Virus record (IMG/VR): IMGVR_UViG_3300048856_000015
Span: 1 to 41,207 of that record
Source of the DNA: a virus
Lineage: Duplodnaviria; Caudoviricetes
DNA: 41,207 nt
Direction: 5' to 3' (one strand)
Under the pieces are notes generated by a model. It saw only the letters and a program-made list of their open reading frames with translations, did not search any database and was not told the origin of the DNA. Shown piece by piece: positions 4,969 to 38,675 of the stretch. The translations under genes and the position numbers were made by a program. Every line of letters begins with the position of its first letter. Within the stretch, counting starts at the first letter, position 1.

Positions 4969-5070
4969 GGTCTTCCCCATCCTGAAACTTCGCGGGACGC
5001 TGAACTTGCCCGCTGGCGCCTTCGGTTTCACTGCTTCCTTGCGGGGCTCATTCCGTCGGCTGATGAGGAT

Positions 5071-5099
5071 GTTGTATCGAAAATCGAAACGAGACGCAA
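5071..5099 (-). promoter_or_regulatory. PL-like sigma70 promoter
   Basis: Minus strand TTGCGT-N17-TACAAC, overlapping operator 5074-5090. Confidence 0.7.
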
Positions 5100-5146
5100 G
5101 GGGACGGTAGCGAAAATCGATACAAATTTGTTGCGGTTTCCGATAC
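5074..5146. promoter_or_regulatory. OL: three 17-bp repressor operators
   Basis: GTATCG-AAAAT-CGAAAC (5074-5090), GTAGCG-AAAAT-CGATAC (5107-5123), GTTGCG-GTTTC-CGATAC (5130-5146). Consensus palindrome GTATCG-N5-CGATAC is shared with OR. Confidence 0.85.
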
Positions 5147-7237: not shown

Positions 7238-7266
7238 AATGTAGCGATAATCGAAACTCAAGTCTG
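7238..7266 (-). promoter_or_regulatory. PRM-like promoter for a leaderless cI mRNA
   Basis: Minus strand CAGACT-N17-TACATT; 7 nt separate the -10 box from the cI ATG; no SD. Confidence 0.5.
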
Positions 7267-7315
7267 TTTCTGTTATCGATACAATCCTCTTGCATGTAGT
7301 ATCGAAAATCGATAC
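7241..7315. promoter_or_regulatory. OR: three 17-bp repressor operators
   Basis: GTAGCG-ATAAT-CGAAAC (7241-7257), GTTTCT-GTTAT-CGATAC (7266-7282), perfect GTATCG-AAAAT-CGATAC (7299-7315). Confidence 0.85.
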
Positions 7316-7318
7316 AAA
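7290..7318 (+). promoter_or_regulatory. PR-like promoter
   Basis: TTGCAT-N17-TACAAA enclosing the perfect operator; mirrors the PL layout. Confidence 0.65.
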
Positions 7319-7323
7319 AGGCT

Positions 7324-7557
7324 ATGGAACCTGCAAAGCACATCATCTACGCCCTCGGTGGCCCATCGGAAGTGTCCCGGATCACCGGGGCGCATCGCAC
7401 CAGAGTTTCCAACTGGATGCGCCGCAAGGAAGACGGCGGCACTGGAGGGGTTATCCCGTTCAAGTACGCGCCTGCTTTGCTGGCCGCTGCCAAAGAGCGC
7501 GAAGTCGAGCTATCGGCAGACGATTTCCTCCCGAAGGTTGCGGAGGCTGCCGAATGA
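7324..7557 (+). CDS. cro: Cro-like repressor
   Basis: IIYALGGPSEVSRITGAHRTRVSNW...GGTGGVIP; divergent from cI. Confidence 0.85.
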   Translation: MEPAKHIIYALGGPSEVSRITGAHRTRVSNWMRRKEDGGTGGVIPFKYAPALLAAAKEREVELSADDFLPKVAEAAE

Positions 7558-28834: not shown

Positions 28835-29575
28835 ATGCCCCAGCTCTATCCTGTGGCCAAATCGAAGATCGCTATGGGCCCGGCGGTCACCACCGTCCCC
28901 GATGACGAGGATATCGACGTCACCGACTTCACCGGCATTTCCTTTACCGAGATCAAGGGCTGGCAGACGATGGGATCGGTCGGCGATGCCGCCGCGCTCA
29001 TCACTGAAGCGGTGATATCCTCTGGCCGCGACCTCAAGGCCAAGGGCACCCGCAACGCCGGCTCGATGCAGAACAATTTCATCATTCTGCCGGATGACCC
29101 CGGCCAGATCGCGCTCATCGCCGCCGAGGCCACGCCCTACAACTACCCGTTCAAGATCACCTTCGACGACGCTCCGCCGGCCGACAGTTCTGTGGTGACC
29201 ATGACCATTGCGGCTCCGGGTGTCATCTCGTGGACCGGCCACGGCCTCGAAGTCGATCAGCCGGTTCGGTTCTCCACCACGGGCGCGCTACCGACGGGCC
29301 TAGTCGCAGGCACGACCTACTATGTGAAGACCGTGCTCGACGCCAACACCTTCACGGTTGCCGCCACCGTTGGCGGCGCGGCCATCACCACGACTGGCAC
29401 TCAGTCCGGCGTGCACACGGCAACCACCGTTCCCAGCCCCACGACGAAGTACTTCTACGGCATCGTCATGTCGGCACAGGAGCAGGGCGGTGGCGCCAAT
29501 ACGGCTCGCCTGCTGGCCGGCAACGTCGAAATCAATAGCCCGGTCATCACCGTGGCTCCGGCTGGGGGCGCTTGA
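28835..29575 (+). CDS. Major tail tube protein with an inserted beta-rich domain
   Basis: K.KGTRNAG and DDPGQIAL.AA; insert TIAAPGVISWTGHGL...TTGALPTGL..GTTYYV. Confidence 0.8.
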   Translation: MPQLYPVAKSKIAMGPAVTTVPDDEDIDVTDFTGISFTEIKGWQTMGSVGDAAALITEAVISSGRDLKAKGTRNAGSMQNNFIILPDDPGQIALIAAEATPYNYPFKITFDDAPPADSSVVTMTIAAPGVISWTGHGLEVDQPVRFSTTGALPTGLVAGTTYYVKTVLDANTFTVAATVGGAAITTTGTQSGVHTATTVPSPTTKYFYGIVMSAQEQGGGANTARLLAGNVEINSPVITVAPAGGA

Positions 29576-29991
29576 TGGACGAGCCTGATTTCATCGACTT
29601 CGGTCTCTTCGACGCCAACCTCCGCCTTCAAGAGGAAGGGATCGCGGTCGAGATCGCGGGCCCGGACAACAAGCCGTCTGGGCTGCTGATCACCATCTGC
29701 GGCCCGGACAGCACTCGCGCCCAGGCGGCATCGATCGCCCTGCAGAAGGAAATCGAGCAGGAGGCCGCGAAAGAAGGGAATGCCGACATCGACAGTCCCG
29801 AAGCCCAGCGGCGCCGGCAGATCTCCTATCTCGCCAAGATCACCAAGGGGTGGAACAAGCCTCCGATGGTCGACGGCGAACGGCTATCGTTCTCGGAAGA
29901 GAATGCGGTCCGGCTCTATACCAAATACCCGATCATCGAGAACCAGGTCCGGTTCAAGGCTGATCGCCGCGGGTCTTTTATCGCAAGCTGA
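29572..29991 (+). CDS. Tail assembly chaperone (G-like)
   Basis: I.ICGPDS, LAKIT.GW, VDGE...FS.ENA..LY.KYP.I..QV; follows the tail tube gene. Confidence 0.8.
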   Translation: MMDEPDFIDFGLFDANLRLQEEGIAVEIAGPDNKPSGLLITICGPDSTRAQAASIALQKEIEQEAAKEGNADIDSPEAQRRRQISYLAKITKGWNKPPMVDGERLSFSEENAVRLYTKYPIIENQVRFKADRRGSFIAS

Positions 29992-30335
29992 TCGCCAAGC
30001 TCGACAGAGCCCTCGCTGATCAGCTCAGAGGCAAGAAGCCGCGCATCCCGGTCGCCGGGCGGCATGTCTGGGAATGGTTCTGGAAGATGGACCGGACGCG
30101 GGAGGGGACGGGCTTCGGCCTGAACCCTCTTCAACCGTCACAGATCGACGCTTGGTTCCGGCTCCGGCGGATAGTGCCGCAAGTTTGGCATTTGGACGCT
30201 ATCGATCGGCTCGATGCTACAAGACTGCGGGTCTATTTCGAGAAGAAGGACGACAAGGAGCCTGAAGCGCAGGTTTCGAGCCGTCCGCTGACGTCGAGGC
30301 TATTCGACGCCCTCTTTCCAGGAAGATCGAAATGA
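29964..30335 (+). CDS. Tail assembly chaperone (T-like), probably reached by -1 frameshift
   Basis: The -1 frame is open from 29964 and encodes HVWEWFW.M.RTR...GFG.NP.....I.AW.RL......W..DAI..LD; no good upstream start. Confidence 0.7.
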   Translation, partial: SPRVFYRKLIAKLDRALADQLRGKKPRIPVAGRHVWEWFWKMDRTREGTGFGLNPLQPSQIDAWFRLRRIVPQVWHLDAIDRLDATRLRVYFEKKDDKEPEAQVSSRPLTSRLFDALFPGRSK

Positions 30336-30338
30336 AAG

Positions 30339-30623
30339 CTAGTTCTGTTGATCTTTCGGAGGGACCGTCGCTTCCAATGCCGTGGCATACCGATGGAGTT
30401 GATCGGCAAGCTCGCGTGCCGCCTTGGGGCTCATCGCGACTTGTATCTGATTTGGTGAACGGTCGTGACGACGGGCCTTATCTAATTCTGCCTGAGACTT
30501 CGCGTAGCCTACTCGCAAGACAACGTGATGCGCTATTGTCGCTACGCCCCAATCGTAAAGCGAATCGGCCTTGAGGTCATTCTCAGACCTGAAGTGCCAC
30601 TTCGACCTGTCTTTGTCGGTCAT
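30339..30623 (-). CDS. Hypothetical protein coupled to the RHH gene
   Basis: 94-aa ORF with ATGA overlap. Confidence 0.65.
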   Translation of the reverse strand: MTDKDRSKWHFRSENDLKADSLYDWGVATIAHHVVLRVGYAKSQAELDKARRHDRSPNQIQVAMSPKAARELADQLHRYATALEATVPPKDQQN

Positions 30624-30835
30624 GGATCGGCCTTCAGATAGCCGTGACCAGTGAGCCAGTCCTTTAGGATGCGGCGGTTCATTTCGGATCGAGACGGTTT
30701 GTCGTCCTGATCTGCCGCAGCTTTATCCAGTGCCTCCCCGATTTCGGGGCGGATCATTGTGTTGAGCTGATCACCCTTGCCGATGGCGGGGCGACCGCGT
30801 TTGTTTTTTTCTAGATTTAATTCTTGACGGGTCAT
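30620..30835 (-). CDS. Ribbon-helix-helix (Arc/Mnt/CopG-like) repressor
   Basis: KRGRPAIGKG......IRPE...ALD..AA.Q.DKPSRSEM.RRIL..WL...GYL. Confidence 0.8.
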   Translation of the reverse strand: MTRQELNLEKNKRGRPAIGKGDQLNTMIRPEIGEALDKAAADQDDKPSRSEMNRRILKDWLTGHGYLKADP

Positions 30836-30858
30836 GCAATAAAGTCTAGAAGAAAAAA
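30805..30858 (+). promoter_or_regulatory. Promoter for the accessory operon with an inverted-repeat operator
   Basis: TTGACG-N17-TAGAAG (30824-30852) bracketed by TTTTTTCTAGATTTA and TAAAGTCTAGAAGAAAAA (two TCTAGA cores). Confidence 0.6.
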
Positions 30859-30928
30859 CAGGCCGAAGCAAGAGGTGGTGCTCTTGCAACGGCCCTAACC
30901 GAAACGAAGATCACTGGAGGATCATCGA

Positions 30929-31357
30929 ATGGCTCATTCCGCCATACCCCTTTCTGCGCTCTTTAGCGACCCTTTTGTGGCGGCGGCTTTCCGCCGCGCT
31001 GACCGGGACAGGGGCGCTGCCGTCGCCGTTCCTGTCCCACGTTCCCCGAACCTCTTCGGCGGAGCCGCCGAGGTCGAGCGAGGCTACGTGGAGAACTGCA
31101 TCGAAGGCTTGATTGCGATCCTCGACCAGATGGATGGCGACGAGAACCTTGAGCCCTATCTCGCCGGCCTTGACGAGTTCAGCCTCGATGACCGCGAGGA
31201 CGAAGACGAACACGGCGGCGATATCCAGGACGAGCCGCACGACGAGACAGACGAAGGGAACGACGAGCCAAGCCTTGGGTGGAGCAACCCGGAAGGTCTG
31301 CGTCGTTACGTGAAGGCAGAAGCTCTCCAGCTTATGGGCGGGGAGGACTGGGAATGA
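30929..31357 (+). CDS. Acidic hypothetical phage protein
   Basis: GGAGG RBS; IEGLIAILDQMDGDENLEP followed by D/E-rich repeats. Confidence 0.75.
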   Translation: MAHSAIPLSALFSDPFVAAAFRRADRDRGAAVAVPVPRSPNLFGGAAEVERGYVENCIEGLIAILDQMDGDENLEPYLAGLDEFSLDDREDEDEHGGDIQDEPHDETDEGNDEPSLGWSNPEGLRRYVKAEALQLMGGEDWE

Positions 31358-31602
31358 AGGAAGAGTGGGTTCTCAACGGATCGACCAACGTAATTCGGCT
31401 CCCTGTCGCTGCGGTGGTGAAAGCCAAGCAGATTTCTGTAGATGAGTTTCTTTCGCGGGCGCTGCCGGCGGAATTGGTTCGATACCATTCGAACGCCCTC
31501 ATTGAAGCGATGGCGGAAATACACCCTCACGAACGAGGTTGGCGCACCGAGATCAGCCATGATCCGGGAAGCGAATATGTGCTCATTGTGCCGCGCATTT
31601 AA
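31354..31602 (+). CDS. Hypothetical protein
   Basis: MKEEWVL start by ATGA overlap; GGAGG RBS. Confidence 0.6.
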   Translation: MKEEWVLNGSTNVIRLPVAAVVKAKQISVDEFLSRALPAELVRYHSNALIEAMAEIHPHERGWRTEISHDPGSEYVLIVPRI

Positions 31603-31736
31603 GACGACCTGAAACCAGATTCCCCGCTGCCATGGGGATGTAACGCGAACACAAAGCTTCATAGGCTCCGGTGTTCGTGAAAGCGAACCCCTGTGCGTTA
31701 CCGGGCTTGGCAGGCCGGACGCCTATGGAGACTGAC

Positions 31737-32396
31737 ATGGCTACTGCAAAACAAGACGTTGGTATCGAACTGCCGCCGCTGCAAATCCAACTGATGGAAG
31801 TTACTGTCGTCGGCGACAGCCCGCTGATCGTGCATGCATGGTCTGAGAAAGCCAAGAAGGAGATGCTTGGTAAGCAGATGAAGGCTGCGAAAATGGCGAA
31901 GGAGGCCAAAGACCCCCGCGCCGACTTCGAAAGCTCGCTATACCGTCTCGGGGACGGGTTCGGCTTCCCCTCGATTGGCTTCAAGGCTGCTGCTGTTACG
32001 GCTTGCACATCGGTTGCCGGGATCACGAAGGTTGCCGCTCGGCAGGCATTTCACATCCTGGGCGAAAACATCGACGTGAATGGCGCCTTCGAAGGGACAA
32101 AGGCTCGCGTTAATCTCGTCCGGATCAACGGCGGCGCGCCTTCGATGCGCGAAGACATGGTTCGCGTCGGGATGGGAACGGCCGACCTTCGCTATCGCGG
32201 CGAGTTCGCCGACTGGCACGCAAAGCTTCTCGTGCGCTACAATGCGAACGTCCTGAGCGAAAGCCAGATCCTCAACATCATCAACGTCGCCGGCTTCGCT
32301 GTCGGCGTAGGTGAATGGAGACCTGAAAAAGACGGCATGAACGGCATGTTCCATGTCGCGACGGAAGCAGAGCATAAGATGTTGGAGGCCGCGTGA
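31737..32396 (+). CDS. Stand-alone Cas7/RAMP-superfamily-like RNA-binding protein (Vipr-like)
   Basis: RAMP hallmarks: V.VVGDSPLIVH strand, FPSIGFKAA helix, thumb-like MVRVGMGTADLRYR, W...L.V.Y strand, glycine-rich loop AGFAVGVGEWRPEKDGMNGMFHV; GGAG RBS. Confidence 0.75.
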   Translation: MATAKQDVGIELPPLQIQLMEVTVVGDSPLIVHAWSEKAKKEMLGKQMKAAKMAKEAKDPRADFESSLYRLGDGFGFPSIGFKAAAVTACTSVAGITKVAARQAFHILGENIDVNGAFEGTKARVNLVRINGGAPSMREDMVRVGMGTADLRYRGEFADWHAKLLVRYNANVLSESQILNIINVAGFAVGVGEWRPEKDGMNGMFHVATEAEHKMLEAA

Positions 32397-32914
32397 TGAA
32401 GATCGCAGGTTTCGAGTTCGCGGAAGGCGCCCGCTTTCAGTCTGGCCAGCATGCCGATGCTAACGTTGTCGGCAACCACATCGAAATGCTCCGGAAGAGG
32501 TTCAAAGGGGAACTGACGCCGCAAGACATCCTCGATGATGCCCGCCACGACAACTCGCCACTACACTCGTTCTTCGAATGGGATGACAGCGCGGCGGCCG
32601 AGCACTACCGGCTGCAGCAGGCGCGGGGGCTCATCCGAAGCGTCGTGGCGATCTATACACGGCAGGACCTGCCGGCCGTGCGTACGAGGGCATACGTCCA
32701 TGTTCCAGAGCCGTCGGCACCGCATTACCGCGAGGCGTCGCATGCGATGTCGCAAACGAAGACCAGGAAGATGATCCTTGACCGGGCGATGAATGAGTTG
32801 AGAGCATGGAAAGCCAAGTACCGCGACCTTGAAGAGTTTGCGGCGTTGATTAAGATCATCGACACCGTTGAAGATGATTTCCCGCGGTCGCTGCGGGTCA
32901 TCGGCAAGAACTAA
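32393..32914 (+). CDS. Conserved partner protein of the Cas7-like gene
   Basis: GTGA overlap; motif LTP..ILD.AR...SPLHSFFEWDDS.AAE.YRLQQAR.LIRSV. Confidence 0.75.
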   Translation: MMKIAGFEFAEGARFQSGQHADANVVGNHIEMLRKRFKGELTPQDILDDARHDNSPLHSFFEWDDSAAAEHYRLQQARGLIRSVVAIYTRQDLPAVRTRAYVHVPEPSAPHYREASHAMSQTKTRKMILDRAMNELRAWKAKYRDLEEFAALIKIIDTVEDDFPRSLRVIGKN

Positions 32915-32935
32915 GTGCGGAGCTGGCGCCCAACT

Positions 32936-33264
32936 GGCTGGCAAGGATCATGGCAGGGCAGGCGCGGCTAGTTGTGGTCACGCATGATAAGGTTATGCCC
33001 GTTTCGGCAGGCATCAGGGTTATGGCGAGAGTTCCTTACAACCTCGCGTCCTTAAAGGATATCGTGGCAGGCGTGGCGAGTTCAGGTAAGTCGAGGTCTG
33101 GCGAGTTCTGTCATGGCAGGCGAGGCGGGGTACGTCGGGTCTAGGTGGGATATGGCAAGTCCCGGCAGGCTAGGCAAGGTCAGGTCTGTTGAGTTGCGTT
33201 TCGGTCTGGCTGGCGGGGTGCCGCATGTTGGGTCGTGGTGTGGCGCGCCAAGGTATGGTGTGGG
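32936..33264 (+). ncRNA. Array of putative guide RNAs: GGC(A/T)GGC-delimited units built of G(G/T)Y-NN pentamers
   Basis: Delimiters at 32936, 32952, 33006, 33066, 33115, 33164 and 33208; intact units are 44, 49, 49 and 54 nt (9+5n); strong G-rich strand skew; ends at a terminator. Confidence 0.8.
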
Positions 33265-33288
33265 AGGCCCGCTTCGGCGGGCCTTTTC
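33265..33288 (+). terminator. Rho-independent terminator closing the array
   Basis: AGGCCCGC-TTCG-GCGGGCCT-TTT. Confidence 0.9.
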
Positions 33289-33595
33289 ATTGACACTGGT
33301 TCGCACTTCGCAAATAGAACGTATCGGCGTAGATTATGAATGGCTCGAAATCAGATTTCATGCCGTATCTGTCTTCCATGCTTACAAAGCCGCAAATCGT
33401 GGTTTGGTCCATTGTTGCTCTTCGCATCCCTCGGATATAGACAGCGCGAGGGTGCGCGTTTTTGGGCTGCATAGCCGCGACAATCTGTTGGACCACTGCC
33501 GCATCAAAATCCTTGTCCGAACCGTCCATTACTTGCTGACCGTAGGCATTCGTCGCGAGCGCCAGCACTAAACCGAAAATCGAGAATCTTTTCAT
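33287..33595 (-). CDS. Exported moron protein
   Basis: Signal peptide MKRFSIFGLVLALATNAYG; ICGFVS...YG....F.PF motif; AAGGAG RBS. Confidence 0.75.
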   Translation of the reverse strand: MKRFSIFGLVLALATNAYGQQVMDGSDKDFDAAVVQQIVAAMQPKNAHPRAVYIRGMRRATMDQTTICGFVSMEDRYGMKSDFEPFIIYADTFYLRSANQCQ

Positions 33596-33649
33596 CGTTC
33601 GCTCCTTGAGTGATGCGACGATAATCCGCATCGCGGAAAGGTAAAGCCG

Positions 33650-36600
33650 ATGACCGTTGCCAATCTGGGCTTCGCTGTGGACAGCTCGCCGCTGGCGAGC
33701 GCCACCTCGGAACTCGACAAGCTCACTTCGTCAGCGACGAAGACAGAGCAGGCAGCGCAGCGCGTGGGAGCCGCCGGCACGCGCATGTCGCGCGGGTTCG
33801 CCGATCTCAACCCGGTGCTCGACAAGATTGTCGGCTCGCTTGGCCGCCTCGAAGGCATCACGTCCTCGATCGACAAGCGCCTGGACATGATGTCTTCGGC
33901 TGCCACCAGGGCCGCGAAGGCGAATAATGTCCTTGATCAATCGGCGATCGAAGCATCGACCAGTTACAAAGCCTTAGCCGCCAACCTCGCTGCGGTGACG
34001 GCGGCTCAGACAAAGGCGGATGCTGCTCAAGCCAAATCGCTCTCACAGATAATGAAGCAGAAGGACGCCATCGCTGCTCTGAATGCCGAGTTGCAGAAAC
34101 TTCGGTCTGCGCCGCCTATGCCGGCTGGCGGTCGGCCGTCCCCCGCGAACAATAACGGAGGTCAGGCGGGCGTTGGCAACATCGCTGCGCAGCTCTTCGA
34201 TACCTTCTCGACTGCTCCCTACATGAACGCCGGGCAAGTAGGTTTCCAGCAGGGGCCTCAGTTCGCACAGGCCTTCGCAGGTCAGTCGGCCAAACAGGCG
34301 CTCGCTGGTTTGGGCGCTGGTCTGGCGGCAATCGCGAGCCCGGTGTCTCTCATTGCTATCGGACTCACCACGGCGACTGCTGCCGCTGTGAGCTTCGGCG
34401 TTTCGGCGTTGAGCGGCATTGGCAAGGCCAGTGATGCGCTTGAAAAGCACGATGAAATACTGCACCGGATCAAGGAGCGTTATGACGCTGCCGCAGAATC
34501 TGGCGCACAGTTTGGTCAGCGCACTCAGTCGGCCACTGCCTTCGATGTCAATCAGGATCGAAACGCTCTGCAGAAGGCATTGCAGAACGGCCTAAGAACG
34601 TTCGCTATGCGCGCGACGCCGCAGGTCGATGCATCGCAGTTCCAGTATCCCGGCGCCGACCTAGCCGGCATCACCGAACAGATGCGCAATGACCAGTTCG
34701 GCCCGTTCGCGGAAACGCTGCGCAAAGTCGTTGATCTTGCTCGCGACGGTAAGGGCGACGTCCTCGATCTTAACCGGCAGATCCAGGATATCGCCAACGC
34801 TGACCCGAGCAATAAGCGGCTCCAGACAATCGCCACCGACATCCTGAAGATGACGGAAGAGGCCACCAAAGCCGCCGATGCTCTTGAGGAACTGCGGAGG
34901 AAGGAGCGCGAGGTTCGAGATACCTTCTCCCGCACCGACGCGGCGGCAAACGCGAACCGCTACAATGCGGACAACGACTATGCCCGTCTTGCGATGACGC
35001 GGCGCTACGACGCCGATGTTGCTGGAATAGGCGCAAGGAGTCCTGCCGAGCGCGCAGCCGCCGAACGTCGACGCCTTGAGGCTGAACCGATCGACCCGAA
35101 GGAAGCTCCGGCAAACCGGTCGCTCCGGATTGACCAGCAGGTCGATCTAATCGTTCGCCGGGCTCAACAGCAGGCATTAGAGGCTCAGCGCGAGCGCGCC
35201 TTGAACCTGCAGAAGATCCTCGAAGATCAGCGGACGGATATCGATCTCATCGGCAAGACGGGCGGCGCCGCAGCGGCTCTGCGCAAGGAGTATGAGCTGA
35301 TTTCAGACCTTCGCCTTGAAGCTGCGCGGAATGGAACCGCAGTTGATGAGGCGGAAATATCCCTTATCAAACAGAAGACTGCGGAATACGGGAAATATGT
35401 CGACGTGCTGAACCGTCGGCGGTTTGATTTCGAGATGAGCCAGCAGGCGGGAGATGCCCATCTTTCCCCGCGCGATCGGCAGATCACGACCACGCTGCGC
35501 CAGTACGGCCTTCCTGAAGACCTCAAGGGCACCAACGCGGCCCGCATCGGGCAGCAGCTCGACTGGTCCGAGAGCAAGGACATGTTTAAGGGCTTCTTCT
35601 CCAGTTTCGAGGCAGCAGCGTGGGAGAACGGCGGCAAGATCGGGGATGCACTCGGCAAAGCCGCGCTCAGCTCGCTCCAGAAGACGACTGAGAAGCTCTG
35701 GGACAACATCTTCGATCGCCTCGCAACGGGTCTGGCGGATGTTTTGATGGGCGCGCGTGGCGGCAACACCGGATCCGGCGTCGGTGGCGTGATCGGTTCG
35801 GCTGCTGCTGCGCTCGGTGGGCGTGCTTCCAACGACAATCGTGCGCCGGTCATTCCGGTCACCCGGTCCGCGCTTGGTCCTGTCTCAGGTTCTGGTGATG
35901 CTCTCGCATGGAACTTCTGGAAGAGCAAAGGCCTCCCCGATCATCAGGTGGCCGGCATCCTTGGTAACATCAAAGGAGAGAGCGCCTTCAACCCCGCCGC
36001 CATAGGTGACGGTGGCGCGGCAAAGGGGCTTTATCAGTGGAACGATCGGGCACCCAAAATGCTCGCCTCCGTCGGTTCGGACTGGAAGAATAACCCTCTT
36101 GCTCAGCACGATTTTGCCTACAAGGAGCTGATGGGCCCTGAAAATAAAGCGTGGAAAGCCCTCACGTCAGCTAGTACCACGCGTGAGGCTACGGCGGCAT
36201 TCGCCGGTTTCGAGCGTCCCCAGGGATTCTCGTGGAAGAACCCCGAAGGTGCTCACAACTTCTCCGGTCGGCTGAACGGTGCCGAAGAAGCTCTTTCAAA
36301 ATTCAGTGGAACGGCATCACAGGCCACTGAAGGACTAGGACAGCTTGGCACGGGGTTGGGCAAAGTAGGGCAGTCTCTGTCCACTAGCTTCTTCCCGGCG
36401 GCACCTTCCGCTCCCTCTGGTGGCGGTGGTGGCCTGTTCTCCTGGCTTGGCGGGCTGTTCGGCGGCGGTGGCGGTAACCTGTCTAAATACGCTGGCGGGA
36501 TCGGCCTCTATGCCGACGGCACGAACTATGCGCCGGGCGGCATGGCGATCGTCGGCGAGCGTGGCCCGGAACTGGTCGATCTTCCGCAGGGGTCTAAGGT

Positions 36601-38234: not shown

Positions 38235-38675
38235 ATGGACATTCATGAATTCGTTCACCTGCCGCATCGGTTCATGTGGGGCGGGGACGGGAGAGCGCAT
38301 CCTGCTGACCCGCAGGGCAGGGTCTATAACGACTGCACGACGATCTGCGCTTCCTGGGTTGAGGTTCTGACCGGTGTGGACCCGGCCGCCGATCTGCGAG
38401 GCACCTATCGGACAGCCGAAGGCGCGCACGCCATCATCACGGCCGCCGGCGGGCATGTGGCCTTCATGCAGGCTCGGCTTGCCCCTCTGGGCTTCAAGCG
38501 CGTCCATCACCCAATCGACGGCGATGTCGGCTGTGTGCGGGCACCGTCGGGAATGGAAGGTGGATTCTCAGAGGTCGGGGCGGTTCGCTTCGGGCCGCTG
38601 TGGGCCTCGCTTGGACCGATGGGCATCGTTGCGAAGCCGCTGGAGATGATCGCCGCTTGGAGGCTCAGTAGATGA
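38235..38675 (+). CDS. NlpC/P60-like tail tip protein (lambda K position)
   Basis: F.WG...DC....A.WV...TG.DPA...RG.Y and GDVG. Confidence 0.75.
   Translation: MDIHEFVHLPHRFMWGGDGRAHPADPQGRVYNDCTTICASWVEVLTGVDPAADLRGTYRTAEGAHAIITAAGGHVAFMQARLAPLGFKRVHHPIDGDVGCVRAPSGMEGGFSEVGAVRFGPLWASLGPMGIVAKPLEMIAAWRLSR

Follow-up and report, generated by a model that had tools for sequence, protein, structure and literature searches.

The question raised by this locus is why a phage should carry a guide that spells out, almost but not quite, a part of one of its own tail genes. The DNA analysed here (the window, 41.2 kb in full length) is the record of a temperate tailed phage from soil, with PHROG matches to repressor, helicase, terminase, portal, capsid, tail and tape-measure proteins. 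A sequence-only reading had noticed that one array unit, U4, when its dinucleotides are taken as the first two letters of codons and the third letter is skipped, closely resembles a segment of the tail chaperone gene. The features around that segment are:

29572 to 29991, plus strand: first part of the tail assembly chaperone (PHROG 313).
29964 to 30335, plus strand: open -1 frame, extension of the tail assembly chaperone, with an ATG at 30087.
30102 to 30128, plus strand: resident copy of the U4 target, 16/18, encoding EGTGFGLNP (EGTGYGINP in kin).

Among twelve homologues of the chaperone extension, PF23812 was found in five, and three are named tail assembly chaperone. The extension is likely translated through a frameshift from the upstream chaperone, which would take place at the CTTTTA run in their overlap, a conserved run that the window shares with 6 of the 7 kin displayed. 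At 30102-30127 on the plus strand, 16 of the 18 letters read by U4 matched, in frame and with the skipped letters at third codon positions, as had been proposed. This was the sole U4 site in the window with at most three mismatches, and with skips of 0 or 2 the best match in the window was 13/18. The two mismatches lie in guide units 5 and 7 (matches per unit 222212122, with both guide ends intact) and oppose a guide A to A and a guide A to G, neither of which is a wobble pair. Such a match, which the earlier reading had estimated to be rare by chance, was also rare in three controls: out of 100 windows with shuffled dinucleotides, 2 gave a match with three mismatches or fewer, and 16/18 was reached by 6 of 5000 order shuffles of U4 and by 20 of 5000 codon-aware random guides, which corresponds to 0.1-0.4% per guide.

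U4 stands in an array downstream of the chaperone gene. The genes in front of the array, its parts, and the resident target copies in the tape-measure gene are:

31737 to 32396, plus strand: vipr gene, RAMP fold, profile match to SUSP1 Vipr (E 5e-14), start after GGAG.
32393 to 32914, plus strand: vap accessory gene (PHROG 15946), in which the window's own U1 site starts at 32690 (14/18).
32915 to 32963, plus strand: conserved non-guide leader of the array.
32964 to 33005, plus strand: guide U1, 9 units, 17/18 on the vap gene of two related VIPR phages.
33013 to 33065, plus strand: conserved non-guide pseudoknot-like element inside the array.
33073 to 33114, plus strand: guide U3, 9 units, 18/18 on tape-measure genes of kin (VDQKELDLI).
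33122 to 33163, plus strand: guide U4, 9 units, 18/18 on the tail-chaperone extension of kin.
33171 to 33207, plus strand: guide U5, 8 units, 16/16 on tape-measure genes of kin (YKQLEASL).
33215 to 33261, plus strand: guide U6, 10 units, no target found.
33262 to 33290, plus strand: GC-rich hairpin and T run ending the array, terminator-like by eye and absent from the scan calls.
33965 to 33988, plus strand: U5 site of the window's own tape-measure gene, 10/16 (YKALAANL).
35342 to 35368, plus strand: U3 site of the window's own tape-measure gene, 12/18 (VDEAEISLI).

The locus is a VIPR system. The window Vipr matched SUSP1 Vipr with E 2.6e-4 as a single sequence, and the profile match covered residues 3-191 of 202. 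A model built from a 109-row alignment had a pLDDT of 95.5 (only 33 in single-sequence prediction) and resembled Csm3/Cas7-type RAMPs (Foldseek E down to 3.5e-6, TM about 0.4-0.5); the protein combines a RAMP fold with a G-loop and homology to SUSP1 Vipr. The overlapping vipr and vap ORFs are followed by the array within the phage tail region, and in most of those among the 21 related viral loci that are long enough, vap likewise comes after vipr. Pfam gave no name for vipr or vap, and the search for a PDB relative of vap gave nothing convincing (best E 0.48). Rfam returned nothing at gathering level on 31550-33400, a promoter scan gave nothing above shuffles, and no direct-repeat array of the CRISPR-Cas kind was among the repeats listed for the window. 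Between the chaperone and the tape measure there is an insertion (30339-33631) made up of the VIPR cassette and several small genes; in L006, L004 and the kin phage G004 the chaperone and the tape measure are adjacent.

Two observations concern regulatory regions. A leader upstream of vipr (31660-31730), conserved in 7 of 12 aligned loci, has a compensating outer stem beside the ribosome site and a GGCAGGC motif, and autoregulation by Vipr is possible there. Elsewhere in the window, the repressor region is flanked on both sides by repeated operator-like boxes (5069-5130 and 7241-7330).

The array consists of five guides of 8-10 units with GGC-A/T-GGC joints, plus two non-guide elements. Five tracts show the alternation of GGY and NN, or a related consensus, that defines VIPR guides, and the nine U4 dinucleotides are present at a period of 5 (18/18). 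Half of the scaffold trimers (20/40) are GGY, 34/40 are G[G/T]Y and all 40 end in a pyrimidine. In type II VIPR (SUSP1, P. fulva), guides of 9-16 repeats each carry a conserved pseudoknot tail of about 40 nt (10.64898/2026.04.26.720920). Unlike these, the window guides abut at 7-nt junctions, and U3 to U6 have no tail between them. In staggered VIPR arrays, adjacent guides are offset by one base and the end of one is the start of the next, according to the accessible legend of fig. S18 (10.64898/2026.04.26.720920). The GGC-A/T-GGC junctions agree with the wording of that legend, the part of the figure that was compared, and the window VIPR is probably of the staggered-array kind. The array would presumably be expressed and processed at these junctions.

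The pseudoknot-like element is frequently the first in the array and was also found in L010, L013, L014, L019, L021, L022, L026 and L028. Its stem and pseudoknot covary: 96% of cells are paired, both partners have changed in 5 of 12 pairs, and slid controls gave about 50%. Where this element often stands, L023 and L024 have what we take to be a hammerhead-like core. The element may be an unclassified ribozyme or a processing signal. The array leader, a third alternative at the array front, recurs in L008, L009, L011, L013, L015 and L016. Its first hairpin was supported, with an invariant GCCC loop complementary to the first junction; of a proposed three-helix structure two helices were mis-registered and only this hairpin stands. 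The layout of the leader presumably resembles that of twister ribozymes (no Rfam match). MFE folds of both non-guide elements were no better than those of shuffles.

Perfect targets of the guides were found in related phages. Exact U4 matches numbered 7 in IMG/VR, with 6 in the orthologous chaperone frame, and 19 in GTDB, where 4 lie in the orthologous gene (Rhizobium, Neorhizobium and Allorhizobium) and the remaining 15 are unrelated (11 in one Bacillus-type ORF and 4 in other genes). For other guides of 18-20 letters the background of exact matches was 0-1 unrelated. All 12 exact matches of U3 were in tape-measure orthologues, as were 4 of the 20 exact matches of U5. The three guides converge on the same phages: G004 is perfect for U3, U4 and U5 (at 38478, 36549 and 37098), all inside a 1.9-kb stretch of a single tail operon, and the Neorhizobium locus L104 scored 18/18, 18/18 and 15/16. 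The proposal that U4 aims at the orthologous gene of a related phage was thereby supported, since perfect matches to its pattern, sought in tail chaperones of Rhizobiaceae, were found in phages as well as prophages. G002 and G004 (100% and 97% complete) showed no vipr, and neither did four host genomes searched with the window Vipr as the query; some targets of U3 own a VIPR (G014, G033). U1 had no perfect related target and its single exact match was unrelated, while U6 had 0 exact matches in IMG/VR and one one-mismatch match in 401 Rhizobiaceae genomes.

The perfect in-frame matches of U3, U4 and U5 in kin agree with a skip of 1 nt. The coding-strand sense first noted for U4 is common to all four placed guides (U1, U3, U4 and U5), and in each the skip falls on the wobble base. 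Skipping had been expected to make targeting resistant to synonymous escape. This held in so far as the skipped bases vary at perfect sites: for U4, with 9 distinct sites from 10 records, 6 of 8 positions vary, and for U3 all 8 do. It did not hold throughout: G002 keeps the U5 peptide and yet scores 13/16, and kin with the same peptide score 13/16 or 15/16. Synonymous escape is still possible for U5 because of amino acids with six codons (AGC-Ser and TTG-Leu codons).

We consider it probable that U4 is a VIPR guide which matches the chaperone of close kin 18/18, and that two derived changes in the carrier's own orthologue likely prevent its silencing. The scores of the four guides on the carrier's own orthologues were 16/18 for U4, 14/18 for U1, 12/18 for U3 and 10/16 for U5. 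EGTGYGINP was present in 10 of 10 close homologues covering the site, all found without the use of the guide (of 13 homologue proteins, one was the window's own, one lacked the site and one was distant), and EGTGFGLNP was present in the window alone. In a 65-row tree of 125 columns, which includes several rows found through the guide and does not resolve the window's exact sister, the window is nested in a 100/97 clade of 19 rows, the other 18 of which share EGTGYGINP; therefore the F and the L are derived.

At residues invariant in kin, private changes amounted to 2 of 9 in the U4 site versus 4 of 203 across the chaperone, major tail and terminator proteins (p 0.022), and to 3 of 8 in the U5 site versus 2 of 70 (p 0.007), or versus 5 of 84 with kin not picked by U5 (p 0.02). 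Pooled for U4 and U5, the counts were 5 of 17 versus 6 of 273 (p 1.4e-4). Within the chaperone extension alone, with unselected homologues, the U4 comparison (2/9 versus 1/35) was not significant (p 0.10), and one kin sequence had four private changes in an 8-residue window elsewhere.

Judging from the sequences, the cassette likely silences rival kin and probably spares its carrier. According to the published VIPR model, Vipr would coat the guide, each NN would pair with one DNA strand while the third base is skipped, and the guide-coated Vipr filament, which needs no PAM, would block transcription on the template strand. Three such roadblocks in the late operon of kin would lower the amount of chaperone and tape measure in a shared host, so that a co-resident or co-infecting kin phage would run short of tail components. 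U1, by way of vap, would put a rival cassette out of action. We propose that the carrier is spared because the bases that are read set the amino acids, and its own proteins differ there; as there is no PAM and wobble bases are not read, amino-acid differences would be the main cue that separates self from kin. The chief doubt about this sparing comes from the SUSP1 system, in which matches of 89%, the level of the resident U4 site, are functional. The carrier may be spared through central mismatches in particular: in a post hoc comparison, self mismatches affected 12 of 19 central units versus 1 of 16 among the two units at either end (p 6e-4). This pattern is a lead only, because the guides of relatives do not all follow it.

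The relatives were examined for similar relations. We parsed 17 of 21 related loci, leaving out two duplicates and two truncated ones, and 16 loci yielded 44 guide rows, including one that was parsed wrongly. No row matched its own record perfectly; four reached 80-86% and none 89%, with six of the own records being short fragments (several of 6-17 kb). L026 has two guides with 18/18 and 20/22 on tail genes of kin, and its own orthologues are altered under the guide. In an out-of-sample test, an L014 guide with 15/18 on self had its sole exact IMG/VR match in an orthologue of the L014 gene that holds this self match (47% identity, E 6e-35). Guides of L013 and L016 aim at a second vap segment (17/20 on L022), with own copies at 14/20 and 17/24, and vap is a recurring target within the VIPR clade of the window.

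A stronger version of the preferred reading is that the phage rewrote essential tail residues of its own for immunity to its own guides, with units 3-7 as a PAM-free checkpoint and a linked block of weapon and antidote. We regard this version as tentative and somewhat doubtful. The cassette does sit between the two sites whose alleles would be resistant (30102 and 33965), and if the version is true, guides and resistant alleles would travel together as one block through a recombining phage population.

It is quite possible, if short of an even chance, that the order of events was the opposite, with no evolved escape: the carrier's own residues changed first by drift, and guides directed at the differing spots survived. 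The function against kin would be the same. Selection against self-targeting guides would yield the same clustering of private changes. At the U3 site two kin differ from the guide too (VDEKEIELI and VDQKEIELI), and the window's vap peptide under U1 is common to three relatives. The own states at U3 and U1 may predate the guide, because they are partly or wholly shared with other phages. F and L are also present at the U4 site of more distant homologues. However, both U4 changes are private to the carrier in a clade that is otherwise invariant.

Alternatively, the resident site may be partly bound, and U4 would then be a brake on the carrier's own late tail genes, e.g. in the lysogen, and would act more strongly on kin. 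We consider this unlikely. Natural SUSP1 targets average 89.2% of read bases, and REP decoy sites are counted from 83%, in the accessible text of the SUSP1 study (10.64898/2026.10.15.759431). Since matches of 89% are functional in that system, a 16/18 site, equal to this mean and matched at both guide ends, may still be bound; the self match also exceeds the 80% line, which none reached in the sets checked in the discovery paper, that is, the P. fulva clade and types III and V (10.64898/2026.04.26.720920). On the other hand, the own sites of U1, U3 and U5 score only 14/18, 12/18 and 10/16, and the own allele moved away from the guide and not towards it.

The resident allele could also be an escape from the guide of another phage on the same conserved site, which seems quite improbable. 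Related VIPR phages do target the group of the window: guide L015_g3 matches 16/16 at 36521 in the tape-measure gene, and L028_g1 (L028:7228) matches the pseudoknot-like element 20/20 in L013 and L019 and 19/20 at 33019 in the window, with diverging copies in L028 itself. However, no second guide against the U4 site was present in the 44 guide rows or in further arrays of relatives. A guide of L015 also matches the window's major tail gene in antisense (29306-29328, 14/16), and L015 and the window appear as a case of reciprocal targeting, with the caveat that 16-letter guides easily match conserved motifs. Chance is refuted as the origin of the resident U4 match, for although five guides and a GC-rich genome raise its expectation to about 0.6-2%, and two-mismatch matches of U4 in 31 of 401 Rhizobiaceae genomes are at background level barring one known prophage (reversed control, about 40), the perfect matches lie in orthologues of precisely the gene in question, and further guides match these phages too.

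The reading we prefer, a guide against kin that the carrier's own allele likely resists, can be set beside the known systems. Class 1 CRISPR RAMPs (Csm3, Cas7) share the fold, but they rely on contiguous pairing and repeats, whereas the window shows gapped pairing and no CRISPR repeats were found. With the VIPR of the discovery paper (10.64898/2026.04.26.720920) the locus shares the vipr RAMP gene with vap, guides of 5-nt repeats, the 1-nt skip on the wobble base, and the targeting of phage competitors and of VIPR genes in rivals. It differs from the tested systems, which are of type II and whose guides each end in a 3' pseudoknot tail, in that its guides abut and half of its trimers are not GGY. 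In the accessible text of the VIPR cryo-EM study (10.64898/2026.04.26.720927), the GGY-reading residues are H17, R138, W178 and R179, which align with H, R157, W197 and R198 of the window Vipr, and D177 is E; mismatch tolerance is not covered in the accessible main text.

The accessible text on SUSP1 VIPR (10.64898/2026.10.15.759431) likewise reports that escape requires amino-acid changes, and that guides against parts of rival VIPR score lower on self, which is read there as avoidance of autoimmunity. That self-avoidance, as described in the same text, concerns guides against the vrRNA locus in phages of Enterobacteriaceae, whereas the genes concerned in the window are essential tail genes, targeted in temperate kin phages of Rhizobiaceae, and the tree indicates that the own allele is derived. 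VIPR works without a PAM and does not read wobble bases, which makes it of interest how a carrier attacks near-identical kin and avoids silencing itself; mismatch tolerance is not covered in the accessible text of the three preprints. The locus offers natural pairs of alleles, 16/18, 14/18, 12/18 and 10/16 versus perfect or near-perfect sites in kin, which would give a direct gauge of the specificity threshold of VIPR in what is probably a staggered-array type, a point relevant for VIPR as a tool. The skip code, the wobble logic, pairing with the template strand, and targeting of rival phages and of VIPR itself are already published for VIPR. What appears new in relation to the accessible VIPR preprint texts, whose supplementary tables may list such cases, is a self match above 80% (89% for U4) and, in a probably staggered array, the choice of targets: unlike those of the discovery paper (10.64898/2026.04.26.720920), they are kin genes orthologous to structural genes of the carrier, paired with a derived and possibly resistant own allele.
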